Below, in pieces: positions 424 through 57,516 of a DNA stretch of 60,965 nt. The stretch lies in the NCBI GenBank assembly GCA_001938485.1, contig MQRK01067526.1:1-60965 (forward strand). Reading direction: 5' to 3'. The stretch is from Girardia tigrina. Taxonomy: Eukaryota. The first letter of the stretch is position 1, and the number at the start of each line of letters is the position of its first letter. Both the position numbers and the translations under genes were made by a program. The notes under the pieces are model-generated. The model was given only the letters and a program-made list of their open reading frames with translations, did not search any database and was not told the origin of the DNA.

Positions 424-825
424 TTTTTATTTGAAAACATGTTTCGCCACTTTTTTTACAGAACTAATTTTTAATTTCTTTCAAAATAATTATGAATTTT
501 ATCCCGTTCATTGTTTTTATTATTTATTTTAAAATTACTTTTCCTAAATATTTTCCTATTAAAATATATTGATTTTAATTAATTTAAACTTTTAATTTGT
601 TTTACATAATTATTTAATTTTTGTTTGTTTTTAAAAAATTCTTTAACTTTTTTTAGTTTTGTATTTAATTAGAAAGTTATTGTTTATATAGAAAGATGAC
701 CATTACATCACAGTGTGTTACGTCAAAAATGGTCATCTTTCTATATAAACAATAACTTTCTAATTAAATACCGAACTGAAGATGCCACAAAAGTGGCGAA
801 ACATGTTTTCCAATAAAAATTTTTT
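424..825. mobile_element. Penelope-like 3' end (pLTR) fold-back remnant with no coding sequence
   Basis: Perfect 44-bp inverted repeat 661-704/728-771. The sequence matches the 3' UTR of the GIY-YIG-bearing PLE at 56100-56205. A partial antisense hammerhead at about 433-454 is separated from the left arm by about 200 bp of AT-rich DNA. Confidence 0.8.
773..810 (+). ncRNA. Minimal type-I hammerhead ribozyme (PLE-associated)
   Basis: GAA-CTGAAGA-T-GCCAC-AAAA-GTGGC-GAAA-CATG-T-T-TTC: CUGANGA and GAAA cores, 5-bp stem II, palindromic stem III (ACATGT), GUU triplet, 3-bp stem I. Confidence 0.8.
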
Positions 826-1434
826 TTAGTTTTATATACTTTATGCATTTTTTATATTTTACGTAATTATATAATTTTTGTTAAAATTAAAAAATTTCTG
901 GTGTGTTAAAAAGTCGCAAAACAATTTGAAAATAAAAAAAACAATTTTTATTAAATACGTAAAATACGTAATTTAATAAATATTTTTCTTATTATAGTTT
1001 TACAGTATTTATATTTTTTTAAATTGAAAATCGTGTTCATTTAAAAATAAATTTTCATGGAAAAGATTCAATTATTTATTTGTAGAAAAAAATCCCTCAT
1101 TTGACATTGAGAAATTACAGAGTCTGTGAAATAATTAATGCTCTTCAATAAGAAAATATTATTTTGCTAAAAATTCACCGCAAAAGTCCGCCAATTTAAC
1201 TTACAAAATAACAAAACGAAATTGGAAAATTATTTCCAAAATAATTTTTTGTTTTCTTTTTGATTTTTACATGAAAATTTTGAAAGAAAATATTTTCTAA
1301 ATTTTGTGTTTTATCAATAATAATTCCACTTGTAGAGAAAATGATGTAAAATTTAAATCAGAGAAACATGAAAACAGGAATGAAAATTTAAGATTTAAAT
1401 ATAAAATAATACAATAAGACAAATACATGCTTTT

Positions 1435-1871
1435 AATTTTTACGAAAATATCAAATATATAATTGTCTTTCTTAACAACGTCAATATGAGTTTTGCAACA
1501 TTTATTATTATCACAAGCGCATTCACTATTTGACATATCTCTTGATCGATATTTTTCTGAGTTTAAACTAATTATTTTCAATAAATGAAGATCTGTTAAT
1601 AAAAATTATTAATTATAAAGAATTTAATTGGTTGAAATTAAATCTAAACATTTTTAAAAAAAAAGAACATATTAAATTAATATTTTAAAATTTTAATTTA
1701 CATTAAAAAATAAATAATACATTCCAAAATTATTTTAAATCTTTTTACTTTAAAATTAAATTAAATTATTTTTAATTAGTAGGAATCAAAGAAAATATCA
1801 ATCATCCATCTGTGCAGGAGAGGAACAATCCGAATCAACATACAACATGCACAATATCAACACACAATTCA
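1435..1871 (-). repeat. Copy 2 of TGTGAGGAAT-module family (5' boundary missing)
   Basis: Colinear with 25260-25630 (inverted), 3640-3920 and 31640-31950. ATG at 1536 gives MSNSECACDNNKCCKTHIDVVK. Confidence 0.8.
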
Positions 1872-2334
1872 CAGTCTTGCCAAAATACGATTTACATCCC
1901 AAATAGATTTTTTAACAGTGAACATTAAAATAATTAAAATTTACATGAAAAAAATTAACAATCAAAAGTGCTCAAATTTACAAGATTACACAACACCACC
2001 GAAATGCAAATTTTTCTGGCTTTCATATCCGGGCCATATCGTCTTTGGACAACAACCATCATATTTGACCCTAACGAGGACCGCCGTTTTATCAATGAAA
2101 TTCACAACTCCATTTTAGCCAAACCATTTGTATTTTGAATATTTTGATATTTTTTATGCTGTATAATACAATGCATTTTGTTTTAGATTAGTAACTCTCC
2201 TACACATGTAGCTGATTGATATGTTTTAATTAGTTGATCAAAAGTAATGCAATAAGATCAAAGTTTAAATGTAAAATAATTTAAAATTTTATTACTTAAA
2301 ATTTTATAATCTAAAATTTTGTAATTTTAATTAA

Positions 2335-2997
2335 CCGCCCTACCCATACGAACGTACGCGATACGGCCGCTATATTATCGCCCTAACGCAACAAACCGTA
2401 TCCCGTACGTTCAGGCACAAAAAAACTATATTCGAAGCCCACAAAACGTTCGTGATACGTTCGCTCGTGATTTTATCGTCTTTCCCCCTATAAATTAAAA
2501 TAAAAATGTAAAATGTTTGGTTTTATTTGTATTTTTTATTGTAATAAAATAAAAATGTTTATTTTTATGTATTTTTTAGTTAATAAAATAAAAATAAGTG
2601 CTAAAATATATGATTTTTATTATGAATAAAAAATCGCTTTGTAGCAGTGAGGTCTATATCCAGTATCCTCTCACCCCGAAAAGTCATAATTCACGAGCCT
2701 TTTGAACACCAACAATATTTTTTTATGAATTGAGATTATGTTGATAGATATATTACATTCAATACAATATATATTAGCTAAAATATTCAATAGATTATTA
2801 TTACAAGAATTATTCGGCGACATCTTATGTTGAGAACCTCTGACTTGCAAAGGATACAAAAAAGGTTCATAAATGAGTCTATTGAGTAAAAGTTTTTTCT
2901 GGTATATTGTAAACAAGTATTATTATTTCAAAATATAATGAAAAAAACCCGATGTTTTTTTACCTACTTTTTGAATAATAACCCAGACGTAGGGCGG
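2335..2997. mobile_element. piggyBac-like MITE / non-autonomous element
   Basis: TTAA|CCGCCCTAC ... GTAGGGCGG|TTAA: 9-bp TIR with TTAA target duplication on both sides. No transposase ORF. Confidence 0.7.
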
Positions 2998-3539: not shown

Positions 3540-3934
3540 ATCATGACAACAAATATTCAAACCACTCTCGCTATTCGACATTTTTCTTGATTAATATATT
3601 TCTGTCCTCCTAGTTCTTATGCAAACAAATGGAAAAAATATTATAATATTAACTAATTATCAAAATATTATTGGTTAAAATTAGATCTATATATTTTTCA
3701 AATTAAATTAAATTTTTATATAACATTTAAAAATTAAAGATTATATTTAAAAATTTAAAAATTACATTTGAAAAATATTTTAAATATTTTTACATTAAAA
3801 TTAAATTAAATTATTTTTAATTAGTAGGAATCAAAGAAAATATCAATCATCCATCTGTGTAGGAGAGGCACAATCCGAATCAACATACGACATGCAAAAT
3901 ATAAAACAACGAACAATTCAGAACATTCCTCACA
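3540..3934 (-). repeat. Copy 3 of TGTGAGGAAT-module family
   Basis: Starts TGTGAGGAATGTTCTG at 3934. ATG at 3581 gives MSNSESGLNICCHDL. Confidence 0.8.
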
Positions 3935-4109
3935 AATTGAATGTTTTTTTTGTTTTTTTATTTATTGTTTAGAAATATATATTTATATTATTCTTTTATT
4001 TTATATAAATACTTATATTATTCATCAAAGAAGGCACCTAAATTATTAACACATATTTGCTATTTGAGCGGAAGCTTGTTGAGGCCATTTTAATTAAAAT
4101 TTAGTGGAC

Positions 4110-6489: not shown

Positions 6490-6699
6490 TATTTATATTC
6501 AATTGATATGAATATGCAACCAGCTTAATTTATCCTTGGGTCCTCGTTAAAAACTTTGAATATGTCTTTTGCTAAGTATCAGATTTAAACAAATAATGCG
6601 TCTTTTTATTTCACAACGTACCTAATTCAACGTATGAAATGTATTTTAAATCAAAGAAATTTAAAAATGAAATAAAAATTGGAAATTCTAAAATGTTTA

Positions 6700-9690: not shown

Positions 9691-10240
9691 TGTGAGGAAT
9701 ATTTTAAATTTGTATGTTGAAATTGGTTTGTTTAATTTTGTATGTTGAGTTTAGTATTTGGAAATGTGTTTCTCCCACACAGATGGAAAATTGATATTTT
9801 AGATGTTCACGATAAATAATTATTCGAGTATAATTTAGATTTTAAAGTACAACATAAGATATTTAAAAACATTAAAAATATTAAATCGTTTCAAATTTTC
9901 ATATTAAAATTTAAATAAAATAAATAGTTTTAACTAAGTTTTGAATTAATTAAATGTTCTTTCTTTCCGTAAAATAATTTTTAAATAAAATTAATATGTA
10001 AATAAAATTAATAATAAAACTACAAAATTTGAACTTTAAAAATAAAATCAGAAAATAATGAAAAATTTGTTCGAATAATTGTTTATTAAAAAACATTAAC
10101 AAAAAGTTATCAATTTAGAACGATGTCGAATTACGAGAGTTTTGCTGAGAATTGTCCAAAAGACAATTCTAATTGTGTTGAAAATAAAAGGTCGAAAACC
10201 CATGTTGGTGTTCTTAATAATACCGATGATGTGTTTTGAG
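9691..10240 (+). repeat. Copy 4 of TGTGAGGAAT-module family
   Basis: TGTGAGGAAT at 9691. TTTAG just before ATG 10123, which gives MSNYESFAENCPKDNSNCVENKRSKTHVGVLNN. Confidence 0.8.
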
Positions 10241-11534
10241 CCAGTGTAAGAGAGAGAAATAAGGAAAAACTCGCTCTGGTTGGCTGATCAAGCAGAGCGA
10301 GTACTGGATAGACAAAGAAATTCATTATTTTTGATTTTTTTGAATTATTGATGAATTTTAATTTTTTTGTTAATACTCGATTGATAGTTTTATAAAGTTG
10401 TATTTCTCGATTTGGTGAAGTTTCGTGAATTTCTTTTGGTGATTGAGTTTCTCAATTTTCGAATATTATTGTAAGAAATGAATCTTTCTTTAAATAATTT
10501 TTAAAAGAAAGAGACACTCGATATGTGAAATTTGATTTGAAAGCGATTCAATTTTTATTATGCTCGAATGTTGTTTTATGAGATGAACTTTCGTCGATTG
10601 ATGATTTTAAAAAGACATTTTCAATTTATGAATTATGATTTTTACCGGGCTCTAGCGGTTAAAATTGAAAAATGGTATTTTATTTCTTCTTTTGAGAGAA
10701 ATTCAATCAATTGTTATTTTTGTGATTTTGAAATGATTTTTGAATTAAAAATAAAGATTTATATTTCGTCAATGAATGAATTATGGATTTTAAATGTTAT
10801 TGAATATAAAGATATCTCATCACTCAACGACATTGGAATTGTATAATCAACGCAATTAACAAATAGATGATAGAAAGTTTAAATGAAATTTATTTAAAAA
10901 ATGGGGTCTGTACAATGAGACTGGGCGCTCAGATGATCCACTGAGAACCCAAGCTACCACCATCCGGTTCTCGAAGCAACGTAAGGATCAGTCGGAACAT
11001 TTAAGTTTGACGATATATTTAATCATAAACAAATATTTACAAAAAATGTGTGGAGAGGCAGCATTAAGATTGACCGAACTTTTTACAACTTGAGACATTT
11101 ATATATAATTAAATTAAATTAAATAATTAAATATAAAGTAATTAAAAAAATATTAATAAATAATTAAATCTAATAATTAAATCAACTATTAAAAAAGTAT
11201 AAAATAAATAAATTACTTAATTAAATAGCTTTTGTCACAGTCTAATTGCATTATTTTGTTTATTTTCCCTTATTGATTTTATTTCAAAATTGCAAATCGG
11301 TGAGTTGTAATCACCATATATTTGAAATCTTTAATAAGGGTTTGATTGATGTGTGTAAAAATAAAATGAAAATGTAAAAAAGTGTTCGATGTGTGTGCGA
11401 TATGTTTGCTTGTGAACATTTCTATGCAGATGAGTGTGAAAATGGGGAGATATGATTGGTGTGTGTGCCTTTTGTTTGTGTTTGTATGTAAATGTTTTTT
11501 TTGTAATTGTCACAATTTCACAAATGATTGTGTA

Positions 11535-12085
11535 TGTGAGGAATATTTGAATGTTTGATGTTTTGTGTTTGAATGTGTATGTTGATTTGGAAATGTGTCT
11601 CTCCTACCCATATGGAGGATTAATATTTGAATTCTTATTATCTAAAAATATTTAATGTTTAAATTTATTTTTAATTTCAAATAATTTTAAAATTTTAAAT
11701 CAGTTAATTAATTTTTATAATATTTAATAAATAAATCAAATTAATATTTTTTAAATAATTAATAATCATTTTAATTATTATCCAATAAGTTTTGAGTAAA
11801 TATTTTAATAAAATATTTATTTCCCGATTTGCTAAAAAATAATGAGAATTAATTCATTAATCAATTTCGTTTAGAATGCAAATGTACGAAAGTTTTGACA
11901 AAGACTGTTTTAAGGACAATCAAAATTGTTGTTTAAATAAAAATATAAAAAGTCAAATTGGTGTTCTTAATAGTGTAAAAAATGGAAATCAATTAAATAG
12001 AAAATTTAAAAAAGAAAAAGAATGTTTTTTTTCAAATTCGAAGTTAAAAATAAAACAGAATGAGTTTCAAAAGAATTTGAAATAA
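11535..12085 (+). repeat. Copy 5 of TGTGAGGAAT-module family
   Basis: TGTGAGGAAT at 11535. TTTAG then ATG 11876, giving MQMYESFDKDCFKDNQNCCLNKNIKSQIGVLNS, which aligns without gaps to the copy 4 peptide. Confidence 0.8.
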
Positions 12086-14250: not shown

Positions 14251-14581
14251 GACCATACATACGCCCCCGGCAGTCTTTTTTAATCATTATTTCAGTTTCG
14301 AAAACCAACAAAATAAAACCGAAGATCTATTTTATTATTCCATGCAACAATATACAAGCATAAGCCTGCTTTAAGCACTCTAATTTTTTCAAAGTAAACT
14401 TGTCGGTCATCCTCAACACCCATTAAAGAGCATCAAAGATATACACGACGTCGAAGGACAAGATAGCTATCAATCGTAGATTTCAAACCATCTTTTTCCT
14501 CAATTTCAACTACTAGCTTTTTAACTGCAACAACTTTAATATACGCTATTGGATCGTTATATAATCGTTATAATACGTTAT

Positions 14582-15116
14582 ATGATCGCGAGTCAAAGGG
14601 CTTTACGAAACCCCACGGCGAAATTAATGTAAAGGTTCATTTCGGTGAGCTGTGATGTGACCTTGTCCAGTTTTCTTGGAAGAGTGCAACATCAATCCGT
14701 CTGAAGGTGTTCGCATCTGGGCGGAGTTTGAGCGATCGTGTAAAGACCCGAAAGATGGTTAACTATGCTTGTTCAGGTTGAAGTCAGAGGAAACTCTGAT
14801 GGAGGACCACCGCGGTTCTGACGTGCAAATCGATCGTCGGACATGAGTCATGGGCGAAAGACTAATCGAACCATCTAATAGCTGGTTCCTTCCGAAGTTT
14901 CCCTCAGGATAGCTGGCGTTTATGATTCCGTAGTTGAACCTGGTAAAGCGAATGATTAGAAGTATTGGGGGCGAAATGCTCTCAAATTATTCTCAAACTT
15001 TAAATGGGTTCGAAGTGGGCCTCTTTTTAATATTTTTGTTGGAGGTGTACATCGAATACAAATGCCTAGTGGGCCATTTTTGGTAAGCCCAACTGGCGAT
15101 GTGGGATGAACCAAAC
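14582..15116 (+). rRNA. Isolated 28S (LSU) rRNA fragment, pseudogene
   Basis: Conserved eukaryotic LSU blocks GACCCGAAAGATGG, CTGACGTGCAAATCGATCGTC, GGCGAAAGACTAATCGAACCATCT, CCGAAGTTTCCCTCAGGATAGCTGG, GGTAAAGCGAATGATTAGA and GTGGGCCATTTTTGGTAAGC. No flanking rDNA, and some normally conserved positions differ. Confidence 0.95.
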
Positions 15117-15714
15117 ATTAGATCCTTGGGCAGTGTTTGCCTCTTAAAAACTTACACACAAAGAAGGAGAGAAAAAGTGCGTTAAAAGGTGGTCTTACCA
15201 ATAACAGGATGCATTTTAGTTCCAAAAAAATCTAGTAAATCAAAAAAAATTATATCCATTCTTTATGCAGACAAAACTCTACTTTGTCCACAAAATTTTA
15301 ATTAAAAAAATATTTTCAAAGAAAGCACTAAAAAATTCAAAAGTTCTGTTGACCAAGCAGAGTTCCGCCCGCATTAAGCATAGATATAAAAAATATTTTT
15401 TTGATTTACTGTTTAAACTTTAAATCGCTTTACTGAACTTTATTTATTTTTCAATGTATTTTTTTGTGAAATATAAACTTTTTATAATTTATAATTTATT
15501 TATAAACTTTTCATGCTAAAATTGTTCACGAACTCCCATGGGACCGTTTTTTACCAATTTTGAGACCATAAAAAGTTTTTTTTGATCAAATTTTCAAATT
15601 ATCAATAATTGTCATCGAGAATACGTAAGTGTACAATATTTGGAGAAAAATGATTGAGTAAAATGTCTTCAAAAATATGTTTCTAAATTCCATGGATATA
15701 TATATATATATATA

Positions 15715-16848: not shown

Positions 16849-17637
16849 TTAATCCGGCTTAAACTGACTAATAATATCATCCAACTGCAGTTGCAGTTGT
16901 TTCTGAATCATTTCATACCAGGCTATATTGTCATCGTAATGTTTCTGCAAGAGATTCTGTCGATTTTCTACGGATTTCTGAATCGCAACACATCGCTTTT
17001 TAGCAGCAATGACAGATTCTCGAAGCACCTTCACTTCTTTCGTTAATCTACCGATCTCCGTCTCGTGTTCGATCTTGGAGGGCTCCGTTAACTCGAACTT
17101 GTGAACACCGTATTTCATGAAGTTATTAGCGATACACTGGTACGAATTGATCGTCATATCCGATTCGTTTTTTACTCTCAATAACAAAAGTCCTCTTTCA
17201 GTGCATTGTATCGTCAGTTGACGAATCAGTTCATCGAAAAGATCCGAATATATTTGTCGTCTAATCGGACAAACAACTTGGTTTTTCGTTTTCCGTTGTC
17301 TTTCTAATGCTTCCACGCAATTTGTCAACAGAACCACATCTGCTCTCGTAGAAGGTATCGGCGACACGTATTGCGTATAGACAGTGTCGTTGAGTTCATA
17401 ACGAATCGGAGGAAGAATGACATTGATGAGAGCTGTCGTTTCTTTTAATGTGAGATAATTTTCGAAATCTTTAAACGTTGCAATAACTTTTCGTTGGGGA
17501 ATATTATCTGGCCGATCGATACAGCGGCCTTTCACTCTCGATTTATCGAGTTCGACAAATTTATTTTCGTCGTATAAAATAGGTTTTTCGTATTGGATTA
17601 ATATCTTTTCTGGATGAATGAGATGAAATTCATCCAT
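16849..17637 (-). CDS. DNALI1: Axonemal dynein light intermediate chain p28/DNALI1-like protein, intronless and divergent
   Basis: Uninterrupted ORF, first ATG at 17637, 262 aa. Motifs ILPP, VSPIPSTRADVV and VCPIRRQIYSDLFDELIRQLTIQCTERGLLLLRVKNE, followed by a coiled-coil tail. AATAAA at 16789-16794 (minus strand). Confidence 0.9.
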   Translation of the reverse strand: MDEFHLIHPEKILIQYEKPILYDENKFVELDKSRVKGRCIDRPDNIPQRKVIATFKDFENYLTLKETTALINVILPPIRYELNDTVYTQYVSPIPSTRADVVLLTNCVEALERQRKTKNQVVCPIRRQIYSDLFDELIRQLTIQCTERGLLLLRVKNESDMTINSYQCIANNFMKYGVHKFELTEPSKIEHETEIGRLTKEVKVLRESVIAAKKRCVAIQKSVENRQNLLQKHYDDNIAWYEMIQKQLQLQLDDIISQFKPD

Positions 17638-17706
17638 GACGAAATTCAATCAATAAATTAAATAAAACTCAATAATCATTATATTAAATTATAGTAATAA
17701 GAATAA

Positions 17707-18990: not shown

Positions 18991-19415
18991 TGATTTTGTT
19001 TTTATTAATGAATTAAAACTATTTTTCATTATCAATTCGATTTTAAATTGTTATTTAAATTTAGTTTTAATAGCAACCGCGAATTTGAATTTTCCAATGA
19101 CGATAACGAATTACATTATTCAGACAAAATCGAACAAGATCTTTTTTTCTTTTTTTGATGACAAAACATTGTTCCTTATTTTTTGTGACATTGAAAAATT
19201 GTGATAAAATCATATGCATTTTCACATCCCACTACTGAAAGACCAATCAAATTTCATTTTCTCTTTTTACAAGCATGATTAAACATAGAAAACACATTCA
19301 TTGGTCTATTCAAATTATTAATCATACATACATGCACATACATTATTCATTTTAATAGGGCATTTTGTTATTTGCTAAGGTCCTTAAATATATAATATTT
19401 GTCTAAAAAGTGAAG

Positions 19416-20760
19416 TGATGTGAAGTCTCTCCAATGTATGTGACGGAACATCCATTACATGTATATTGGTATAATGAGATCCGAATACAATCCTAATGGC
19501 GTTTGAGATTTATTGGCAGTTTTTCAATATTCTTGTTTTATATTCATGTTTTCAATTTTCTGGGAACGGGATATTACTTTTAAACTTATTGCATTATCTA
19601 ACACTTTCAAAATAGAATTTATAAATATTTTAAACCCTTATGAATATGGTACAGTTAACACATAATCAATTCCCAAACTTTTATAATTAGTGTTGCAAAA
19701 TTGCTCTTGATCTTGAACATCTAAAATTTTGGTATTATTTTTTTTGTCAATTAATTTATCAATAGTTTCCTTTTTTAATTTCTCCACTATCGATTTTGAA
19801 TATCCATTATCATATAATGATTTGTTTAATTATTACATCCTTTGTTATGTTATTACATCCTTTATGTGTAGATGAAAGAGCCCATGAGCGAAAAATAAGA
19901 CCTTTAATCATATTTCAACGATATTTGGGTTCACAGAAACTGATCGGTGTTGTATACAACCCCTTGTCAGTTTTCTTTCTGTAAATCTCCGTCTAATAAC
20001 GTCCGTTTTTTCTCTCAATTAATAAATCAAGAAAGGACAATTTCTTATTTCGATAGTGGAGAAATTAACAAAGGAAACTATTGATAAATTAATTGACAAA
20101 AATTATAGTAAAATTTTAAATGTTCAAGATCAAGAGCAATCTGGCAACACTAATGAAAAAAGTTTGGGAATTGGTTATGTGTTAATTTTACCATATTCAT
20201 AGAGGTTTAAAATATTTATAAATTCCATTTTGAAAGTGTTAGATAATGCAATAAGTTTAAAAGTAATATCCCGTACCCAGAAAATTGAAAACATGTTCGC
20301 CAATAAATCTCAAACGCCATTAGGATTGTGTTCGGATCTCATTATACCAATATACATGTAATGGATGTACCGTCACATACATTGGAGAGACTTCACATCA
20401 TCTCTGTAAGAGAATCCAGGAACACAGTCGCAATGAAGATGGAAGTAACATTGCAGGACATAGTAGACATTGTAAAGGAGATATAACTTCACAACAATTT
20501 AAAATTCTGTGCACTCAATTTAAAAATTATTGGGATAGAGTGACACGTTATATATAAGATCTTTGGATCCTAAAATTAACGTTCAAACTGCACTCTCTAC
20601 AACTTTGTTGAGAGTTTTTAAATGATGTACTGATAACATATTGATTGCATAATCATTGACTGTACTTTATAAGTAAATTTCGTTTGAAAAATCATTTGTT
20701 CTGACGATGACGGTTAAACCGTCGAAATTAATAAACTTTGATTGGCTTAAGAACTTTTTA
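19416..20760 (+). mobile_element. 5'-truncated Penelope-like retroelement with an inverted 5' segment
   Basis: Plus strand 20050-20625: linker and GIY-YIG (LIIPIYM/YTCNGCTVTYIGETSHHLCKRIQEH). Minus strand 20049-19416: RT C-terminus (LSFLDLLIERK, IYRKKTDKGLY). Inverted arms 19416-19793/20050-20400. Confidence 0.9.
20698..20736 (+). ncRNA. Minimal type-I hammerhead ribozyme
   Basis: GTT-CTGACGA-T-GACGGT-TAA-ACCGTC-GAAA-TTAA-T-A-AAC: 6-bp stem II, palindromic stem III (ATTAAT), AUA triplet. Lies about 75 nt after the PLE stop. Confidence 0.8.
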
Positions 20761-22518: not shown

Positions 22519-23199
22519 GATTTATATGAGATCCTTGATTTACATTTTAAAATGTTTATTTGTTATTTTGTTATAATAAATAATTTTTTATCTGCTATTA
22601 ATGGAGAATTTATTTTTCTCCTTAATTGCTCTGTCAATTAACGTTTTCTTTCCGATTTTTTTCTTCAATTTCAATCAGATGTGGAGATGAATTGTTAAAT
22701 TAAATCTTTAATTTGTAATTTGATTCAAACTCGATTCTGTATTAAAGGAACAGTAATTATCCTAAAAAAATGTGGAACATTTCATCAAATTATTTTATCT
22801 TTTCAAAAATTTTTAATGACTTTTTTATAGCATTTGAAATATAATATATTTTAACTACATAATTATTGGCTTGAATACATTTATGAATAACACAAACCAA
22901 ATTGTCATTAAAACAGCTCATTGTGGAACTTTAAGGATTTTTATTACTCTTGATTTTTATATTTTAAGATTCTTACATTATGAACTGGAATTTCGGTTAT
23001 TCATTAAATTTATTATCAAAATATGATCAAATTATTTCAATTAAATACAATTTTAAATTATTTCAATAATTATCAATTTTCAATTATTTCACCAAACTAT
23101 TTTAAAACTATTTTGCTTTGACTGTTCCCTACTCTGAGGGTTTCAGAAAATTCCAAAACTATTTTATGAATCAAGATGAAAATAATTAATTAAATTTAA

Positions 23200-23570
23200 A
23201 AATTGTGTCTAGATTATGTAAGATAAAAAGTTTGTTGAGTAGCAAATCTTTCACACAAACTGGTTTATGTTCCAATTTAGTTTATCGGTATAAATGCAAT
23301 GAGTGTGAAGTCAAAAATATCTAAGAGACTTGTCGTCATCTCTGTAAAGTTATTCAGGAATATAATCGACGGAAAAGTGATAGTAATATTGCTTAACATT
23401 AAAAGAACGATTTGAATAGTATAGTTGATATAAGTTATTTTAAGATTTTGTGTTCACAATTTGATAATTGCAGGGAGATGACAATGTGTGAAGCATTGTT
23501 GATCAAATCCTTTGATCCTAAAATCAGTGTACAAACACCTCATTAGCTTTATTGAAAGAATTTTCATGAT
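23200..23570 (+). pseudogene. Degenerate Penelope GIY-YIG fragment
   Basis: GLCSNLVYRYKCNECE, ETCRHLCKVIQEY and MCEALLIKSFDPK. Confidence 0.8.
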
Positions 23571-23619
23571 TTATAAATTACACAATGATAAGAGAAACAT
23601 AGCATTTATATAAGGGTGA

Positions 23620-24780
23620 ATAAATTGTATATTATATGTATTTTATACATTATTTATTCTTAGGAACATTTTGATATATAATTCACATTGTAGAGCCTTT
23701 TCTACAAAAGTCTAATTCTTTTATAAATATGTTAAAATGTCAAAAAAAGCATGGAGAAAAAAGCAATTCGATTTTTTATGAAATTATAATTCGTCTTATA
23801 ACAGCGGAAACTTATATAAACATTTTTGGTAGCTACAGCCGAGATTCCACGACTGAAAGAACACGATTCCGATTGTATGCTAAATTCCACTCCGGCAATA
23901 CGCACCTTAAAGACGAATCGCGCTACGGAGTCCGTAGTACGGACGCCCAACAACCATTGATAAACGAGCTACAAGCTGTTTCATTAAAAGGGATTCGACC
24001 GAAACTCACGCAGAATGGCCGCTAAACTCCAAACTTCACATACAACTATTAATCGGAACCTTCAGAACCTCGCACGATTTCAACGAAATTTAAAAAAAAT
24101 CGCCGAATTAATGACTGTTCTTGGCTATTGCGCAAATTTACGCTGTGATAGATAAAAACAGATTTTGACATGTGATTATAAGTTTTTTGTCTACGATAAA
24201 TGAAGAGGATAACCCCGTCAACTGAGAAAAAGTACGCCTCGAAGTTATCCACATCAAAAAGGTGATGTGAACGTTTTGAGGACGGCAGCGGGGTCTATTC
24301 ACTCGTAAAAATTTTTGCATGCTAAAACCATCACTTTTGAAGTTTTACTGTACCCAATTAGACCGTGTTCACGCTGCTCCATCAAAACGGCTCGTGTTTG
24401 TTTTCAACAAAACAGCCTAAACCTCATATTTCACGCAGGATACTTCAAAAACTTGAAGGATTGGATTGGAATCTTCTGAAGCACCCAAAATATGGACCAG
24501 ACGATGCCCCATCTGATTATCATCTTTTTAGGTCGCTGGAAATTCTCCTCCGAAGACTCATCTTCATTGAAGATGAGCACATTGAAAGAAGCCCTTCAAA
24601 ACTTTTTACATGCGAACAACAGCGTTTTACGGCTGCAGAATTTTACCGTTGTAGCCTCATCGGAGAAAAATAATAAAAAATAAAGGTGATGCATTTATGA
24701 AAAGGATCGCTTGTTATTTTAAAAATTATGTTTTTAATAAAGTAGTAATTTGCTAACAAAATTTTCGCTCAAACTTGATA
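23620..24780 (+). mobile_element. Degenerate mariner element
   Basis: AKFHSGNTHLKDESRYG (HTH/linker) and LDWNLLKHPKYGPDDAPSDYHLFRSL. Confidence 0.85.
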
Positions 24781-25243
24781 GAAATATTAAATTTATATTA
24801 TGTAAAAACGAATGTTTATTTATTAAAATATACAGTTTGAATATTAATAAAAATTTTCATTTGCTATTTCAACAAAATAATTATTTTAATTTTATTCAAA
24901 AAAAATAATTTTAGTTTTATTAAACTAATTCCATTTTTATATCAAAAAATGATTTTATTCGTGTCACAATTTATAATTATTTTGATAAATTTTTTCAATG
25001 TATTTTGCACAGTAGATTTAAATTCCCGGGAAATTTAAAATAATATATCAGAAACAAAATAAGAAAATTAAAATTTTTGCCTCAGTTGTTATTTTCGTTT
25101 TTTCCGGTTCGCAAATTTTCTATTTTTCAAGCTGAATAATAACAGTCAAATATTTTACGATATATGTTTCACAAAAAAAGACCACTTTGTCTTGAAATCC
25201 ATTTATAAAACAAACCAGTTTCATCATTACGACATTTTCAGTG

Positions 25244-25630
25244 TGTGAGGAATGTTTTGAATTGTGTGTTGATATTGTGCATGTTGTATGTTCATTTGGA
25301 TTGCGCCTCTCCTACACAGATGGATGATTGGTATTTTCTTTGATTCTTCTAATTAAAAATAATTTAATTTAATTTTAAAGTAAAAAGATTTAAAATAATT
25401 TTGGAATGTATTATTTATTTTTTAATGTAATTTAAAATTTTAATATATTAATTTGATATGTTCTTTTTTTAAAAATGTTTAGATTTAATTTCAACCAATT
25501 AAATTCTTTATAATTAATAATTTTTATTAACAGATTTTCACTTATTAGAAAAAAATTAGTATGAACTCAGAAATATTGATTAAGAAAAATGCCAAATAGT
25601 TAATGCGCTTGTAATATTAATAAATGTTTG
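25244..25630 (+). repeat. Copy 6 of TGTGAGGAAT-module family
   Basis: TGTGAGGAAT at 25244. Long near-identity to inverted 1500-1871. ATG at 25589 gives MPNS*CACNINKC. Confidence 0.85.
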
Positions 25631-26539
25631 TTGTATCTCAGTAGAGGGTTTTCGTAAATCATAATCAGATTCTGATAATTTTGGTTCGAATGACTGTTCG
25701 GACGATGATTCCGCTTCACCCCTCAATTTTTGTAGCCAATTAAAACTTGTAAAGACTTCGTTTTCCTTGAAGCTTAAATGATATTCTTTGATATTCGATT
25801 GATTGATTGGGTGTTGAGAATCAATTGGATGTGAAATCGGATCGAATTGATTTATAGAAAAATCTTCACTGGTTAAGACTGCTGGTTGTATCGCGCCGCT
25901 ACTAGATCAAGTTAGATCGTCACTGATTTTAGTTTCATTATTAACTGGAATCACATCTATCACACGAATATAGTGTGGAGAACTGTTGGTGAGTTTCTTG
26001 GCACTGAATATCACAATTACATAATTTCTCCGTCGGCGAATCAAAGCGACAATTCGAAACAAGCTCTTCCACAATTTTGTCGCCAAATATTGTTCGATTG
26101 CCGACTTCAAATCGCACATTGTGCTCGCTTCCAATAGAAATTCGTTGATCGTTCTCCGACGCGGTTTATCGATTTGATTTGATTGAGATTTGATTCTGTT
26201 GTCAGGAATGATCGATGAAGACGCTTTGATTTCATTCGAGTTATTTCTCGATAATTTCCAATCGGATTTATCGAACTCGATTCAACGAGCGAATCATCAC
26301 TGACTAAGTCGACAATAAATTTACTTAATTTTGAATCGATTTTCTTGACCAAATGACCTTCTTTAATATCGAAATGTGCGATTACCATTGGAGAGTTTCT
26401 TTCGATCTTCTCGATTTGGTCGATTTCTTGATGGGCTCTACTCAAATTCAAAATGAATATCTGCACGCCCATATCGAATTTGTTGCTGAAATCTATGACC
26501 TTTTGAGCATGATTTTTTAAATTTAATTCAAAATTTGAA

Positions 26540-31594: not shown

Positions 31595-31972
31595 AGTTTG
31601 CCAACAACACACACTATTTAACATAAATAAATTTTTCTTGATCAATATATTTCTGAATTCATACTAATTTTTTTAATAAATGAAAAAGTTTATTAATAAT
31701 TATTAATAATAAAGATTCTAATTGGTTAAAATTAAATCTAAACATTTTATAAAAAGTACCAATTAAATTAATATATTAAATTATAAATTACATTAAAAAT
31801 TTAATAATACATTCGAAAATTATTTTAAATCTTTTTACTTTAAAATTAAATTATTTTTATTAGTAGGAATCAAAGAAAATACCAATCATCCATCTTGGTA
31901 GGAGAGACACAATCCGAATCAACGTACAACATGCACAAAATAAAACAACAAACAATACAAACATTCCTCACA
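31595..31972 (-). repeat. Copy 7 of TGTGAGGAAT-module family
   Basis: TGTGAGGAATG at 31972. ATG at 31624 gives MLNSVCC. Confidence 0.8.
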
Positions 31973-38129: not shown

Positions 38130-38700
38130 TTCGAAATTCCATCAGACACAACTCCTGATTTTTTTAGTGAATCGATTGTGCTTCAAAACTACGTTGTTAA
38201 TTGACCCTTCTTAACCCAAAGTCTGTCCCAATTGTAGTAAACAAGATACACCCACTTTCTATCTGATGTGACATTCCTATTTCCAAAACGATCTTCAGAA
38301 TGATTATTGAGCATTTCATCTCTAATATCTTGTCTGTGGGAAGTTTGTGCGGAAGTTAGTACATGTGGATCTAGTTTTGGTTTTTCTTCAAAATATCTAA
38401 TTGGTGCAAGTGATTTATTATTGTTTGGTGTGACTTAACATACATTTATTTTGCCAGTTCACGACTGATAATTAAAGGTTCGACATGCAAAGCGGCTTGC
38501 AAATCTCTAGCGTTAACTGTTGCTAGTCGACCGGAAGAGGAATCTTCTTTTAGGCTCATGTTAACAGCTGTAAATTGTTTGAACCACCTTGCAGTTGTAG
38601 CATGATTGCCTTTTCCCTGACCTTCAGTATCTCTAGTCGATAAAATTCGCTTCCAGCAGTACCAGATTAAAACTTGAAGCTCCGTTTTTTCAATTTCCGT
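38130..38700 (-). pseudogene. Degenerate mariner transposase (5' half)
   Basis: LIWYCWKR, ARWFKQF, LKEDSSSGRL, HQTIINHLHQL, VTSDRKW. Confidence 0.8.
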
Positions 38701-38801
38701 TTTATATTTTGTTTTGTACCTACTAATAATTAACGTACAAAATGTAAAATCTATAAAAAATCTTTAACAAATATTAATTAATATTAATTAGAAATATAAT
38801 A

Positions 38802-40067
38802 TTTGGTTGTTCGGAAAGTCATTTCGTTTTATTGGTTTAAAGTAAAAAGACGAATAAATATTTTATTGAAATACATATTGACCATTGTGGTCCAATACCT
38901 TCTTCCATCTTCCTGGCGGTGACATGATTCCACATTCATAAAATATTTGTTCTTTGCTGCTAAAAAACTTTTCCAGGTGATTTTCAACATCTTCATTTGA
39001 TCCAAAAGTGTTACCATCTAAATAATTTTGTAGAGACCGGAACAAATGATAATCAGAAGGTGTGAGGTCTGGAGAATATGGTAGGTGAGGCATAATGTTC
39101 CATCCAAGCTGTAAAAGCTTTTGGCGAGTTACCAAAGTTGTATGAGGTCTGGCATTATCTTGGTGAAACACTACACCTTTTCTATTGATCAATTCTGGCC
39201 TTTTGTGTTTAAGGGATTCATTTAATTTGTCCAGCTGATGACAGTAGACGTCCGAATTGATCGTAGTTTTGTCCAGAAGAAGCTCATAAAATATGATTCC
39301 TTTGAAATCCCACCAAACAGATAGCATCATTTTTTTTTATTAATTTCAGCTTTCAAAGTGCTTTGAGCAGGTTGATCTTTTTTACTCCAAGATCTCTTGC
39401 ATTTTGCATTATTGTAGACTACCCATTTCTCATCTCCAGTGACGATGCGCTTCAAAAATGGATCATTTTCTTGGTGTTTGAGAAGCATATCGCAGATGTC
39501 TAAACGACAGCATAAATTTCGTTCGGTAAGATTATGAGAAATCCATGTGTCGAGTTTTGATGTAAAACCTAGACGCTTCAAATGATCATGGACGGTCGAA
39601 TTAGATAAATGTAATGTCTGGGCAATTTCGCGAGTTGTTATTCGCCGGTTTGAATCAATTAATACCTTTATTATGTCTTCGTCGACATCAATGAGCCTTC
39701 CGGAACGTGAAGAATCTTCAACATCAAAATTTCCGGTTCTAAATTTTTTAAACCAGTTTTGGCATTGGCGTTCTGTCAACACATCTCCTCCATACACTTC
39801 GCATAATTTTCTTCTTCCTTGTACAGCATTTTTACCTTTTCGGAAGTAAAAATGTAATGCCGTAAATGCTGATTCTTGCTTTCCATCTTTGATAGGTCAA
39901 AATCAAATATAAATGTTTTTAATTATTCCAAAATTTTCCAAATCTAACCTTGATTACCAACTGCTAAAATAAATAATATAGTCAATGATTATTAACGATT
40001 ATTAATATAAAAAAATACATTTAAAACAAGTATTAAAAAAAACGAAATGACTTTCCGAACAACCCAA
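38802..40067 (-). mobile_element. Near full-length mariner (1266 bp)
   Basis: About 30-bp TIRs TT(T/G)GGTTGTTCGGAAAGTCATTTCGTTTTT with TA flanks. Contains the transposase pseudogene listed next. Confidence 0.95.
38863..39886 (-). pseudogene. Mariner D,D34D transposase with two frameshifts
   Basis: ATG at 39886 (MESKNQHLRH). Motifs IVTGDEKW, WISHNL, HQDNARPH and YSPDLTPSDY. Frameshifts near 39855 and in a homopolymer at about 39330-39340. Confidence 0.92.
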
Positions 40068-48938: not shown

Positions 48939-48984
<46 letters not shown>

Positions 48985-50697
48985 CCAAATTTATAATACA
49001 GTTAAATTTAGAAAATTGTAAAATAAAACTCCTTAAAAAGAACTGTTTTTAATATTCTGAAATTTCAAAAAAAGCGTAAATTGAAAAATGCAACAATTTT
49101 TATTGAAATAAATTTTGTTTGATGACTCAGAAATTGATGAAGTTTGCGCTGCAAACAGCTTTTCTAACACATATAATAAGTGATATTTTCCAGTAAATTA
49201 AAATTAGATTTCGGTTAACTTGATTTCTATTTCCATTTAAAGTTCCTCTAAAAATAATTGTAGAAAATATATTAGTTATTTCAAACAAAATAATCCCAGA
49301 CAATTCATATGATAATTTGTTTTTCTGAAAGAAAATTTTTTTATCTTAATTGAATAAATGCAATTTAATTTACAGGATATACAATAAATATAAAATAGTT
49401 TATTTGATCTTGCAGGAAGAAAATGATATCAAATAATACAAAAAAATTATGAAAACAAACAGTAAATTTTTTTTATTTTTTCGGAGATATTTTTGTAAAA
49501 ATGAATAATAAAATGTATTTCCAAGAAATAGATAAATTAATAAATGAACATATTCATGAGCTATTCATAAGAAAAAATGCGAATCTTTCAAATAATCAAA
49601 AGCGCCATTTGAATATGGAAGATAAATAAATTTAATTAGATCAGATCGGACGTCATCGTCGATTACGACTACTCGACCCAATCTCATCAATCGACACTCA
49701 GAACGATCATCGTTTCAGTCGTATCAGCATGTCGTCGAGCGCCATCAACCCTGATCGGCAGATATACGGGTACATATCATTAAATTTGGATAAATGAACG
49801 TGGATCGGACGAGTTTTATATGAACAAACGCGGGATGAACGAACCGCAAACCGTTTTAAAAGCAAAACACCTTATCACAAGTCATTCAACACGAACTTAT
49901 ATAAACAGTAAGGAGTAAAAAAATAATATTAAAAAGTAATCATGGAAAAAAATAGGAATTTCTTTTTTTGTGATGATAGACAAAATCATTTTGTTTCTTA
50001 GAATTATTAATTTAGACATTAAAAATACAATAAATTTTAAATAATCAAATGATTTAAAATTCTTAATTAATTATTATCAATAAGTGATTAAGAAAAAAAA
50101 TGTATAAACAATACACAAAAAATTGAAAAATTACAAAAAAATAATTAAATTTTTATTATTAATTCGTAATTTTATAAAATTTATGAAAGACATAAAAATA
50201 AATATTAATAAATGTAAAAAAAGTAACTTAAATATTAATTGATATTTTTGAATTTTGTCAATTTTTAATTTAAATTTTTTTTAATATATAAATTTTTAAT
50301 ATTTTTAATATTTTGAAAATTAATATGATAAATATTTTATAGTAATTTAAGAACTATTTTATTATTTTTTTATTTATATTTAATTTTTTAAAATAATAAT
50401 TTTCTTTATTTTTTAATAATGTTTTATAGATCAAATTATTGATAATTTGTGGAATTAATTAACTTTAGTTTATATTTTCCATTGGTTTATATAATTAATT
50501 TTTCATTATTTCTGTTATAATAATTTTATTTTGAATTGATTTATTCGAATATTATATACAGATGTTTCAGAAGGATTTAAAAAAACATACAATTTTGTAT
50601 TAAAAAAATATTTTGTATATATATATAACATTAAGATTTAATGGCAATTTATTTGTAAAGAAAATGAAGAACAAACGCCATTTAAAAAGTTTTTTAT

Positions 50698-50740
50698 TTC
50701 TCAAAACATGTTTCGCCATTACGGCATCATCAGTTGTGAA
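50698..50740 (-). ncRNA. Minimal type-I hammerhead ribozyme
   Basis: TTCACAA-CTGATGA-T-GCC-GTAAT-GGC-GAAA-CATG-T-T-TTGAGAA: stem I with 6 of 7 pairs, palindromic stem III, GUU triplet. Confidence 0.85.
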
Positions 50741-50853
50741 GTAAATTTCAAATTACAAGTCATTTATATGGCACATTGACTATTACGCAATTAATCTTTT
50801 TTTTAATTAAAATTAAAAGATTTTAATATGATTGGATAATTCACTTTGAACAT

Positions 50854-51435
50854 TTAAGCATGGTTTAAATGCTTTATTAATAATGCCTCAGTGACTATCC
50901 TCTCATGATATGTATCAAAATGTTTCTTCAAAACCTTAAATTCAGTTTCATAGTTAACTTTATCTCTATTTCTGCATTTTTTAATGTGATCTAGAATCGA
51001 GCTATTCCTACTCAATTGGGTGTGTTCAGCTATTCTAATGCGGAGATGACGATTTGTTTCTCCAATGTACAAGGATTCACACTTGTGACATTTGAATTGA
51101 TATACTAGATTAGCTTGGACACCCGATGGAGTTTTTGATTTATTTGAGAAATATCTCGATAGTTTATGAGTTATGAAGATCACCCGCAAATTAAAACCCA
51201 AAGGAACCTTTTTCATTCGGCCTTTCCTCAAATCAGACGCGCCTTCAGAAAATGGTAATTTTAAATTTATTGTTTTTATTACATTACTACTGTCATTATT
51301 TATAATGTTTTCATTTTTATTATTAGATTTTTCACGAATTGAGTCAATTGTATTTTTTATCAAATTATTTAAATAATTTTTATTGTACCCATTATTTTCT
51401 AACCTGCTTTTAAGATCAACAATACCCTTATCCAC
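50854..51435 (-). CDS. Penelope linker plus GIY-YIG endonuclease (partial pol)
   Basis: LENNGY, NLVYQFKCHKCESLYIGETNRHLRIRIAEH, SSILDHIKKC and ERIVTEALLIK. Confidence 0.9.
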   Translation of the reverse strand: MDKGIVDLKSRLENNGYNKNYLNNLIKNTIDSIREKSNNKNENIINNDSSNVIKTINLKLPFSEGASDLRKGRMKKVPLGFNLRVIFITHKLSRYFSNKSKTPSGVQANLVYQFKCHKCESLYIGETNRHLRIRIAEHTQLSRNSSILDHIKKCRNRDKVNYETEFKVLKKHFDTYHERIVTEALLIKHLNHA

Positions 51436-51645
51436 ACCACAATACGTAGAAGATAAATTTCATATTCTGTGAATTAATCCTTTCACCATATTTTTATTGT
51501 ACTTGGGATCACAGAAACTCATAGGATTATTGTATAAACCCGTGTCAGTACTCTTTCGAAATAATTCAGTTTCATAGCCCTTTGATTTTCTTTCAATTAA
51601 TACATCCAAAAATGAAATCTTGTCCCCTGATTCGATTTCACTGGT

Positions 51646-51870
51646 TTGGAGAAAAAATTCAATTTTTTTGAAGGAAACATGCCTTTATTTTACACTAGGT
51701 ATGTTGATGATATCTTCTTGATTTTTGAAAATAAAAACCTTATAGATAATTTTTTACAATTTATGAATCAACTTCATCCAAATATGAGATTTACCAGTGA
51801 AATCAAATCAGGGGACAAGATTTCATTTTTGGATGTATTAATTGAAAGAAAATCGAAGGGCTATGAAACT
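51646..51870 (+). pseudogene. Penelope reverse transcriptase fragment (inverted segment)
   Basis: FYTRYVDDIFLIF, MNQLHPNMRFTSE, ISFLDVLI. Confidence 0.9.
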
Positions 51871-52679
51871 TTTAAAATGGCGTTTGTTATTCATTTTATA
51901 TATATAAAGTTTTAACGAAAATTGTTCATATAATTATATATAAATATATATATTAATAATTAAGTCTTTGTTTGAACGAATTAAGAGTTGCATTGTGGAT
52001 ACGAAAACAAAGATATCGATTTTCCGAATTATTATTGAAATTTGTTATTTGTTATTAAATTTTAACATTGAGATTTCATTCGAACTATGCCCGTTGTAGA
52101 ACTTCTCGGTGATAACAACGAAAGATATCCAGCGAAAAATAATGATTAGGTTTTTTCTGATGTGATGGAGCTTGCGTGCAATGCCGCAGGCCGAGAAAGT
52201 AAAACAGCCCTCTTTAGGGTCACAATTTGTGATTGGACACGGACATTTATATGGACAATAAAAAATATATATTGTTAGGTTCTTGATAATTCAAATCACG
52301 AATTGAAATATTTAAGACTTTTATTTAATAGCAAAAATAATATATATTTTTTAAATAAAATTCTGAAGAACACTTTTCATTTTTTCTCGCGCAAATCATC
52401 TAAACATTAAAGTAATAAATTTTAAATATAGATAATAATTTATTATTTATTTAATTTTAAAATATATTATTACTTCAATTTTTATTAAAATTCTTACCTC
52501 AAACCTCATTGAGTTTTTTTAATTTTTAATTATTTTTTCAAATTAAATACCTTTCTTTATATCAAACATTAATTTAGTCTTAGATTTTAAAATTTTATAT
52601 AATCCAACATCTAATTCTTTTTTATTTAAAAGTTTAAAAGCGAGTCTGTTAATTAATTGAAATTAGCTGGTTCGTTTTC

Positions 52680-52825: not shown

Positions 52826-53369
52826 GAAATATTTGCTGTATAAATGAGAATATAATATTGTGATTTAGTTTGATGACGATGTTTGATCCGTCAAAATTAA
52901 TAACAATGTATTATCATGAACGTTTTTGTATTTTAATTTTCAATTAAAATTTACTACTTGCAATTGGAAAGATAATTTACACAAACAAATTTTATTGAGA
53001 AAACCAAAAACTAATTTGTATTTGGGGAAAAGTCATCAATTATCTATGTTCCATATGAATTTGAGTTTTGATTTAAATATTTGCTTACAAATAACTATGT
53101 TTAGAAGTTGTAATTTATTTGAATCATTTTTAAGTTAATGCTGCCAAAGTAATCATAATTCATAAATAGAATGTTTATTTCTTTAAAAAAACTTTTTTAT
53201 TTGTTCTTGTTAAAAGTACTATATTATTGTTAAAAAGCAACCAGGGATCATTTTAATCATTATTGTTTTCCTTAAACAAATGCGTCTCACCATTAAAACG
53301 TATTCAGTGTAATGAAAAAAATGAAAAAAGTAAAATCTATATAGTAGAAAAAAAATATTGCATCATACG

Positions 53370-54045: not shown

Positions 54046-54257
54046 CTCTAGTCCCATTTAGATATACATAACAAAAAACATCACAGTCAAGGAAAAGGTT
54101 GAATGATTACACAAAAGAACATCTTTCTATTATTTAACAGAATATATATCACTCATAGTCATATATATCCATGGTATTAATATGTTCACCATAATCATTT
54201 ATGACTTCAATAAATTGGATACTAATATTGGTCATAAGGTAGATAAACTAGATAGAT

Positions 54258-55542: not shown

Positions 55543-56081
55543 ATCTCATAAGGCAGCAACCAGCGACTTGCAGAAAGAACCACAGAATGATATGAACATT
55601 CCACCTCATTTGATAGGAAAATGTTGGGATACATTACAAGATCATTGGACAGAAAAGAAATCAATGAATAAAAATTTTAAATAAATTTTGTGAAATAAAT
55701 TTTGATTAACAACATTCTTATTTTTTTAGTTTATTTAATTTTAACGCAATTTTATATTATTTTTGTATAAACCTATAATTATAAGGTTAATTAGCTTTTT
55801 ATAATTTTATAATTTAGTTTCAATTTAATTTATAGTTTATATAATGTTGCATAAAAAAATTTTAGTGATTACGAAATTTATTGCAACATACAAGACATTA
55901 ATTGCATTATTTATGAACTGGATTGAGAAACCCTATAATGTACACTAAATTTTGATTAAAAATGAACTTTGAGGGACCTAAGTTAGAGTATTTATTAGAT
56001 GGACTTCCTATAAACGTGTAAATTGTACACCCTTTACTTCGATTCCACAATTCATACCCTAATGATGGATAATTCAAATGA

Positions 56082-56500
56082 ACTTTTTAATTTTTATTGG
56101 AAAACATGTTTCGCCACTTTTGTGGTATCTTCATTTCTGTATTTAATTAGAAAGTTATTGTTTATATAAAGATAATCATTACGTCACAGTGTGTTATGTC
56201 AAAATACTCTAATATGATTGGACGAATCACTTTGCACATTTAGACTAGGTTTACAAAACTTTATCAAGAGTGCTTCAGTAATTGTCCTTTCATAATTGTG
56301 ATTAAAGTTACTAATCAAAAGCCGAAAATCATTATCAAATACCCTCCTTTGAGTTCCATGACATTTCACTATGTGGTCCAAAATTGAGCTTTTTCTACTT
56401 GATTGGGTATGTTCTGCAATTCTAGTACGGAGGTGACGATTTGTCTCTCCAATGAAGATGCCACAAAAGTGGCGAAACATGTTTTCCAATAAAAATTTAA
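56082..56500 (-). mobile_element. Short Penelope-like copy (GIY-YIG C-half plus pLTR) bracketed by inverted hammerhead-containing ends
   Basis: IGETNRHLRTRIAEH...ERTITEALLIK...NVQSDSSNHIRVF*. About 50-bp inverted repeat 56085-56135/56451-56500. Both hammerhead copies read ATGAAGA instead of CTGAAGA. Confidence 0.9.
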
Positions 56501-57475
56501 AATTAAAATGGTTTTATTTTTGTTTAATGACTAAATTACCATTTGATTTAAAGAAATTAAACTTTTAAACAGTATTTTATTTTCGAATTCAATATAATAT
56601 TAAAAAAACTTTGATCTGAATCCTGTGAAAATTAGAGCAATGACAATTTAATACATTTTATTTTTAAATTATTCTAATTTTATTGTAATTTAATTATTTT
56701 TAATTTTAATTTAGTATTTACTTTTCTATTTTTTATTCAAAAAACAATCGAAAAATGAAAATCTTTTTCGACATAATCCTATACACCTGCCAGTTTTATT
56801 ACTTTTAATGAATAAAAATAAATAAATAATCAAAGAATTTCGGCACCACAGTGAAATTAAAATGAGAAGATATTCCTAATAAAAACGATTTTCGTTTTTA
56901 ATTTTATTAATTTTTTTAAATTTTTTTAAAAAATAGTTCTAAAATTTTAATTACAACTGCTGAAACCTAATTGATAAAAATTCAATTTTATAATTCCAAA
57001 ATAAATATCATTAAATGTAATGACAATTTTCAAACAAATTCTTTCATTCATTAAAAATAAATAATTAAATTTTCCAAACATTTTTTTAAATAAAAAAAAA
57101 TATAATGAATTATTTTTCAATTTTTTTAAATTAATTTTTGTTACTATAAAAATTTAAATATTTCTAGACAGTGAAATAAAAACAATTTAAAATAATAATA
57201 AAATATTACTAAATATTTTAATTATAATTTTTGTCTCGATTGATTGCCAGCTGAAATGTTGATACCGCAAAGTCAGTGAAAATCGTTTTATTTACCAACA
57301 CAATTAAAACAAACAACATGTGTCCATTATATATATTAAATTTTATTTGCCATAAAATTTTATTTATCTTAATTATATTAAAATACTAATAAGTTGACAT
57401 TTTAATTAATTTATAAGGTTTAATAAGGAAGGTTTAATAATAAAAGAGAATAACGCCATTTTAATTTTTTATTCT

Positions 57476-57516
57476 TTGAAAACATGTCTCACCTTTATGG
57501 CATCATCAGTTTTCAA
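57476..57516 (-). ncRNA. Hammerhead ribozyme variant (GAGA instead of GAAA; probably inactive)
   Basis: TTGAAAA-CTGATGA-T-GCC-ATAAA-GGT-GAGA-CATG-T-T-TTCAA. Confidence 0.65.

Follow-up and report, generated by a model that had tools for sequence, protein, structure and literature searches.

Hammerhead ribozyme motifs and a predicted overlapping start codon in Penelope-like elements of Girardia tigrina

Hammerhead ribozyme motifs in the pseudo-long terminal repeats (pLTRs) of Penelope-like elements (PLEs) form a published class, described in 40 metazoans, to which a 60,965-nt stretch of AT-rich eukaryotic DNA from Girardia tigrina (contig MQRK01067526.1, assembly GCA_001938485.1; hereafter the window) adds one host. 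The motifs very probably belong to pLTRs of Penelope/Poseidon-type elements and were left single by truncated and inverted insertions, while the active element is predicted from sequence to cleave slowly, at a site overlapping the start of its open reading frame (ORF). The copies are named here by the position of C3 as A (776, +), B (20701, +), C (50733, -) and E (57509, -), with D denoting the 56.1-kb copy (-).

A type-I descriptor (at most one core mismatch, stem II of at least 3 bp, a 6-nt Watson-Crick palindrome, H17 and stem I of at least 2 bp) matched the window four times, at A, B, C and E, compared with one match in total across 25 block-wise dinucleotide shuffles, and a perfect-core setting returned three matches (A, B and C) versus none across the 25 shuffles. 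The core CUGANGA...GAAA...UH is perfect in these three copies but not in E (A14G) or in D (C3A), which the descriptor missed because C3->A is combined there with G10.1->A. All copies carry an extra U between positions 9 and 10.1 and a 6-nt palindromic helix III, either ACATGT or ATTAAT, and the 10.1-11.1 position is G-C in A, B and C, G-U in E and A-C in D. The original prediction had listed six motif stretches, all of which were confirmed in place and strand, together with their extra U, palindromes and GUU or AUA triplets (by descriptor and alignment), and its cut sites in A and B agree with the motif layout. Its count of three intact and two mutated loci (C3->A and GAAA->GAGA) also stands, although it had overlooked G10.1->A in D and the displacement of stem I by two extra A in E, and the inverted copy beside D is present but is truncated at a junction rather than point-mutated; its inventory lacked a 3' half copy at locus A and two weak, decayed candidates (Table 1). 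No hammerhead was matched up to E 5 in an Rfam search of the window, although such a match does not define these short variants, which were found by descriptor in PMC4209133. Chance matches might be expected at a GC content of 28%, and the two weak candidates (52870 and 25241) may be of this kind, but for the main copies a chance origin is refuted by the shuffle controls and by their fixed placement after endonuclease (EN) stop codons, leaving it practically no probability; the main motifs are real.

The public relatives of an ORF at 50854-51459 are proteins with a reverse transcriptase (RT; PF00078) plus a GIY-YIG domain at the C-terminus, and eight PLE fragments were mapped in the window by relatives (Table 1). 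The unit runs from the EN stop codon through about 85-95 nt of untranslated region (UTR) with a TATA-like box to the hammerhead and a tail: B, C and D sit about 80-100 nt past the EN end, and E does likewise once a 450-nt insert is skipped. The predicted location at Penelope 3' ends holds for B, C, D and E, which lie 3' of RT/GIY-YIG remnants, but not for A, where no PLE ORF remnant was found upstream or nearby. Copy A was assigned to a PLE pLTR because it shares 93% identity with D across 94 nt, and its locus consists of a solo, inverted pLTR structure. Compared with one another, C, D and E have EN DNA that is only 67-73% alike, and on sequence similarity the window holds four lineages (A/D, B, C and E), where at least three subfamilies had been proposed.

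Head-to-head inverted parts occur at loci A, B, C and D, a form typical of PLE insertions (PMC8557442; PMC3846280). A public ORF that is free of interruptions and has seven cluster members shares 90% identity with the EN of D, so close kin are recent. The inverted D copy starts at the inversion junction with the GIY-YIG ORF and is without the 5' strand of stem I; its 'A3' is ambiguous, being either ORF sequence (2-nt microhomology) or derived from a C3->A template (4-nt microhomology). Neither a same-strand hammerhead pair nor a tandem array was found at any locus in the window, and the opposite-strand pair at D has 67-nt hairpin arms, such that a hairpin would form rather than a dimer. With no same-strand partner and with three of them mutated or truncated, the window copies are likely inert relics. 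Locus A, being devoid of an ORF remnant, might instead suggest host-co-opted ribozymes or non-autonomous retrozymes acting independently, as animal retrozymes derive from PLE pLTRs (bioRxiv 10.64898/2026.07.22.740005). However, the non-LTR retrozyme feature of same-strand tandem units, each with a hammerhead and no ORF, was not found in the window, and the similarity of A to the pLTR of D and the decay of three copies also make this explanation very improbable.

The elements appear to be of the Penelope/Poseidon type, as assigned by the motif definitions in PMC8557442. A single ORF with RT followed by a C-terminal GIY-YIG is seen in the locus C and E fragments and in relatives P0001 and P0002. 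The CCHH motif (CxxC between GIY and YIG plus two His), missing in the Hydra clade, is present in the locus C ORF and its relatives, while the CX2-5CxxC linker finger of Neptune and Nematis is absent from locus C and from the relatives' alignment. DKG, as opposed to DKT/DKA another clade mark, occurs in every relative spanning that region, which is not preserved in the window.

Among lineages A, B, C and E, 10-11 of the 11 catalytic positions are identical, compared with flanks that are 49-63% alike over 57 nt upstream and 39-73% over 30 nt downstream (random pairs, 47%), so the core is conserved over its flanking sequence. In an alignment of nine motifs (five from the window and four pattern-selected metagenome loci), 92.6% of cells are paired and two-sided changes occur in six of nine pairs, which exceeds all slid controls and all 500 shuffles (0/500), a control that ignores relatedness. 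The compensatory changes behind the proposed covariation come mostly from copy B and from stem I of C; the ACATGT copies show little covariation and their GCC/GGC is nearly invariant. The metagenome scan returned 15 loci, 14 of them from one assembly and with flanks almost devoid of PLE ORFs, and these, being chosen by pattern, are not independent for stems II and III; a pattern scan of viral contigs gave 46 matches and no relatives. The structure is real and, as the sequences indicate, selected at the family level. Selection acted on the active element families; for the decayed copies the earlier claim of a core under selection is not borne out.

Published metazoan PLE hammerheads share most of these properties. 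Cervera and de la Peña (2014; PMC4209133) give as recurring features a nucleotide between 9 and 10.1, G10.1-C11.1, a palindromic 15.2-16.2, covarying families and opposite-strand pairs, with a consensus of CUGANGAH and GUU among the commonest triplets; by our count, the extra base is present in 54 of the 56 motifs of their Fig. S3 (U in 12), with GUU in 15 and AUA in 2. The window motifs are likewise type I, with a 3-bp stem I, the extra nucleotide, G10.1-C11.1, a palindrome and GUU or AUA, and likewise form several families per genome with single truncated copies and opposite-strand pairs 100-700 bp apart. The C. briggsae and S. mediterranea rows combine U with GUU or AUA, as here. The motifs differ from metazoan PLE hammerheads in their short stem II (3-6 bp) and from the strict minimal 4-nt type in their 6-nt palindrome, which is shared with the Drosophila, Adineta and Oikopleura rows; the earlier label of minimal type I is correct as to type, but they are the 'small palindromic helix III' variant. 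In addition, 31 loci in prokaryote genome bins (L016-L046) encode animal-type Penelope ORFs and are eukaryotic contamination; many have hammerheads, including U3-A8 cores, and 24 hammerhead rows come from 16 of the 31, an extra base being present in each row (U 18, A 4, G 2). Since these loci and the published rows carry the extra base, the 'variant core' is the consensus, and neither it nor the non-GUC triplets are the novelty they had been taken for. The identification as PLE-associated type-I hammerheads, with the open end in helix I and a palindromic stem III, is borne out by position, core conservation and covariation.

The DNA that follows the ribozyme is likely, on sequence comparison, to be the N-terminus of an ORF. 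Tail frames were scored against the N-termini of six close full-length relatives among 121,824 window stretches, for which the tails of A and D are too short; the frame of C ranked 2 and that of the inverted D copy 166. The N-terminus-like frame is entered at the A9-U-G10.1 AUG in A/D (36 codons in the inverted D copy), where both in-frame AUGs are located 5' of the cut, and at a loop-II AUG in C (39 codons). The A9-U-G AUG opens 31 codons in B but meets a stop at codon 3 in C and E. The 3' half of the ribozyme is encodable by the first residues of 4 of 8 close full-length ORFs (control 14/150) and, with the AUG at A9-U-G10.1, the whole hammerhead from the first or second Met of 2 of 7 close Met-starting ORFs (control 1/112), under relaxed back-translation rules set after close sequences had been viewed; under strict rules first-Met fits number 2/65 versus 8/768 internal ones. 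The element's start codon thus likely lies inside the ribozyme in at least two of the four lineages and, as it is 5' of the cut, self-cleavage would remove it.

This overlap is not general and has been published for one anole element. In PAc (Poseidon, Anolis carolinensis; Frangieh et al. 2024, PMC11167929) stem II marks the beginning of the ORF and the cut falls 26 bp past the start codon, the exact position of which is taken here from that paper's wording, and cleavage requires the element protein. The AUG-to-cut distance of 26 nt in A and B equals that of PAc. In contrast to PAc, other lineages here have the AUG in loop II or lack an in-frame AUG at that place, and the window elements have a TATA-like box at fixed spacing. 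A start codon within the ribozyme is not discussed in the accessible part of PMC4209133, and a literature search on Penelope-like elements, hammerheads, start codons and pLTRs found only PMC11167929 and PMC8557442; no statement that the extra base forms the AUG was seen, although supplements may contain one.

It could be argued that the extra U was retained as the U of this start codon (A9-U-G10.1) and not for RNA structure. Besides the frames it opens in A/D and B, relatives P0018 and P0021 fit such an AUG, a contaminant copy (L026, 1828) opens 34 codons from it and the description of PAc is compatible. In the chrysanthemum chlorotic mottle viroid hammerhead (A10; De la Peña and Flores 2001, as cited in PMC1636495), the core tolerates an additional base placed between A9 and G10.1 that is retained for another, non-catalytic function; that ribozyme is monomeric, with stable helices, and belongs to a circular RNA pathogen. 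However, C and E retain the U despite the early stop, among 58 distant full-length ORFs only 2 fit, and for 10 of the 11 types of U-bearing hammerhead at L016-L046 (our grouping) the AUG closes after 1-16 codons and the ORF-like frame begins at a loop AUG or just past the cut. Among the 56 published motifs, moreover, no more than 12 have U as their extra base (PMC4209133). The start codon is rejected as a general rule for this nucleotide, and the explanation is decidedly improbable.

A TATA-like box begins 31-35 nt before C3 in A, D, C and E (background 3.3% per site), and B has TATAAG at -33. An octamer, which we take to be CRE/C-EBP-like (bZIP-type), lies at -52 to -58 from C3 in all five copies; the bZIP-like pattern was written after the sequences had been viewed, making its 0.6% background post hoc. 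Two further EN ends (23106-23612 and 59062-59370, both +) terminate at a TATA-like box. Of 17 hammerheads checked at other Poseidon-like loci, one has a TATAWA between -37 and -29. An upstream Pol II promoter is therefore predicted as likely in the pLTR, with a spacing that is not common to more distant Poseidon-like loci. A TATA box in the pLTR has been published for the Adineta vaga Penelope (Pen2a_Av; Arkhipova et al. 2013, PMC3846280, the accessible part of which does not take up a ribozyme), the D. virilis Penelope is TATA-less (PMC2377424), and a tandem pLTR acts as a promoter (PMC6765202).

In the mechanism favoured here, single copies would arise by 5'-truncated and inverted insertions, and cleavage in the active element would be slow, taking place in dimers held together by the palindrome of stem III, probably with the aid of protein. 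The pLTR of a tandem copy may supply the next ORF with its promoter, 5' UTR and first codons. Transcription would start at about stem I and translation within the ribozyme or shortly past it; the AUG opening the ORF would be A9-U-G10.1 in A/D, perhaps also in B, and a loop-II AUG in C. Cleavage 14-26 nt past the AUG in the A/D, B and C families would strip the cap and the start codon, so that the uncut RNA would serve as mRNA and as template, and cutting would have no more than a regulatory or processing role. The cut might act as a brake or in processing, or it might help translation to begin at a later AUG, as described for viral type-I hammerheads (PMC13725137). By ViennaRNA, folding the monomer into a hammerhead is 8.3-8.7 kcal/mol less favourable than forming stem II only, and the symmetric dimer is 0.2-4.4 kcal/mol less favourable than two free monomers; in PMC4209133, PLE hammerhead monomers did not cleave and dimers did so weakly, and the S. 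mansoni motif showed low cleavage, as dimer or trimer only.

Several points weigh against this mechanism. The lowest-energy dimer is not a hammerhead and the best duplex in the energy model is inactive; the palindrome of A and C is lengthened by the GUU triplet to 10 nt (AAACAUGUUU), which would bury A13, A14 and U17, and low activity is predicted for these copies. The AUG frame is not the best one for B (rank 1482 versus 607) or E (2919 versus 1385). Four of the nine covariation rows were chosen by a pattern that fixes stems II and III, in addition to the relatedness ignored by the shuffles. In PAc, mutating the ribozyme left in vitro insertion unchanged and the cut site coincided with no read ends (PMC11167929), and Naiad PLEs thrive without hammerheads (PMC8557442).

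The competing 10-nt duplex and the normal insertion of PAc mutants would also suit a conserved RNA fold that binds the element protein or dimerises transcripts, with little or no cleavage in vivo. The triplets are sub-optimal, AUA being slower than GUC (PMC1636495), and if the junction A of the inverted D copy came from a template, the RNA that was retrotransposed already had C3->A. Keeping all 11 catalytic positions amid near-random flanks would, however, be unnecessary for a fold that only binds, and PAc cleaves in vitro with core-dependent rescue (PMC11167929), and this alternative is considered unlikely. Going beyond the favoured mechanism, it is conceivable but doubtful that TATA box, ribozyme and AUG form one switch, in which dimer- or protein-triggered cleavage beheads the mRNA and imposes copy-number-sensitive negative feedback on the RT-endonuclease. 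The AUG would then be made by the extra U in some families and shifted to loop II in others; if it is truly kept 5' of the cut while changing place in the ribozyme, this would suggest translation control rather than element excision, and the 35-40-nt motifs with their fixed TATA spacing would be candidates for a small reporter test.

Table 1 Positions of hammerhead motifs, Penelope-like element remnants and associated features in the window. 'Mapped' marks the eight fragments located by relatives.
Feature	Position	Strand	Details
Hammerhead A, intact	773..810	+	Stem I GAA/TTC; core CTGAAGA 776-782; extra U 783; stem II 5 bp; GAAA 798-801; ACATGT; predicted cut after 807
AUG of hammerhead A	782-784	+	A9-U-G10.1; 26 nt 5' of predicted cut
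Inverted, interrupted pLTR copy, locus A	422..760	-	UTR part 652-760 (hairpin with 728-780); 3' half hammerhead 422-454
TATA-like box of A	742..749	+	-34/-32 from C3 of A
Inverted 5'-truncated PLE ORF fragment, locus B	19412..20058	-	RT thumb to EN; mapped
PLE ORF 3' fragment, locus B	20026..20622	+	Linker, GIY-YIG; stops and frameshifts; mapped
TATAAG of B	20668	+	
Hammerhead B, intact	20698..20736	+	Stem I GTT/AAC; stem II 6 bp; ATTAAT; AUA; predicted cut after 20733; AUG at 20707
PLE EN 3' end and UTR	23106..23612	+	Ends at TATA-like box; no hammerhead; mapped 23106-23543
Hammerhead C, intact	50702..50736	-	Stem I CAA/TTG; stem II 4 bp; ACATGT; GUU; predicted cut after 50705; loop-II AUG 50719
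TATA-like box of C	50768	-	
PLE ORF 3' part, locus C	50812..51735	-	RT C-terminus, GIY-YIG with CCHH; 57% identity to P0001; mapped
Head-to-head partner, locus C	51637..51897	+	Inverted RT fragment (YVDD) and 30-nt post-ribozyme tail; mapped 51637-51882
Hammerhead D, mutated	56100..56137	-	C3->A, G10.1->A; A's subfamily
TATA-like box of D	56168	-	
GIY-YIG C-terminus, locus D	56202..56456	-	90% identity to P0002; mapped 56202-56492
Inverted 5'-truncated hammerhead and long tail	56452..56568	+	Hammerhead 56452-56486
AUG of inverted D copy	56458	+	A9-U-G10.1; opens ORF-N-terminus-like frame
Hammerhead E, decayed	57476..57516	-	A14->G (GAGA); closing pair G-U; two extra A displace stem I
TATA-like box of E	57543	-	
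Insert of 450 nt	57600-58045	-	Contains N run; 8-nt direct repeat CCAATCAT on both flanks; splits element E; 145-aa open frame with C2H2-like zinc-finger pattern, no Pfam match
Decayed PLE RT-EN fragment, locus E	58044..59045	-	Separated from own UTR by the insert; mapped
PLE EN 3' end, another subfamily, and UTR	59062..59370	+	UTR to TATA-like box; no hammerhead; mapped 59062-59311
Decayed B-like hammerhead candidate (52870)	52870-52902	+	Two core mismatches; extra C; ATTAAT; AUA; TATAAA at -31
Hammerhead-like candidate (25241)	25209-25244	-	G8->A; extra U; stem II 4 bp; imperfect palindrome; GUU; E 0.18
Copies of ~370-nt repeat	2-112, 1497-1871, 3571-3941, 9691-9852, 11532-11736, 25244-25628, 31631-31972		

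The candidate at 52870 has no PLE ORF upstream and was missed by a profile search of the window at E 20, and that at 25241 abuts an unrelated repeat, no other copy of which has it. An unclassified dispersed repeat of about 370 nt, ending in TTCCTCACA, is present in at least seven copies that are 68-92% alike. Mariner transposase remnants lie at 38863-39896 (-), 24362-24673 (+) and 38446-38763 (-), and an isolated 28S rRNA fragment of 600 nt, diverged from the Rfam consensus, at 14577-15171 (+). A 193-codon open frame without a Pfam match (26107-26688, -) overlaps its neighbours (25580-26281). Part of 50500-51900 was found in 20 of the 24 listed sequencing runs (shares 0.32-0.67; two recorded as RNA), which gives no evidence on expression, habitat or cut sites. 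Among the contaminant loci, two opposite-strand hammerheads overlap in a near-palindrome at L023:4401-4437. The only clear host gene seen in the window, possibly a retrocopy, encodes an axonemal dynein light chain (PF10211) in an uninterrupted, intronless frame of 266 codons (16849-17649, -).

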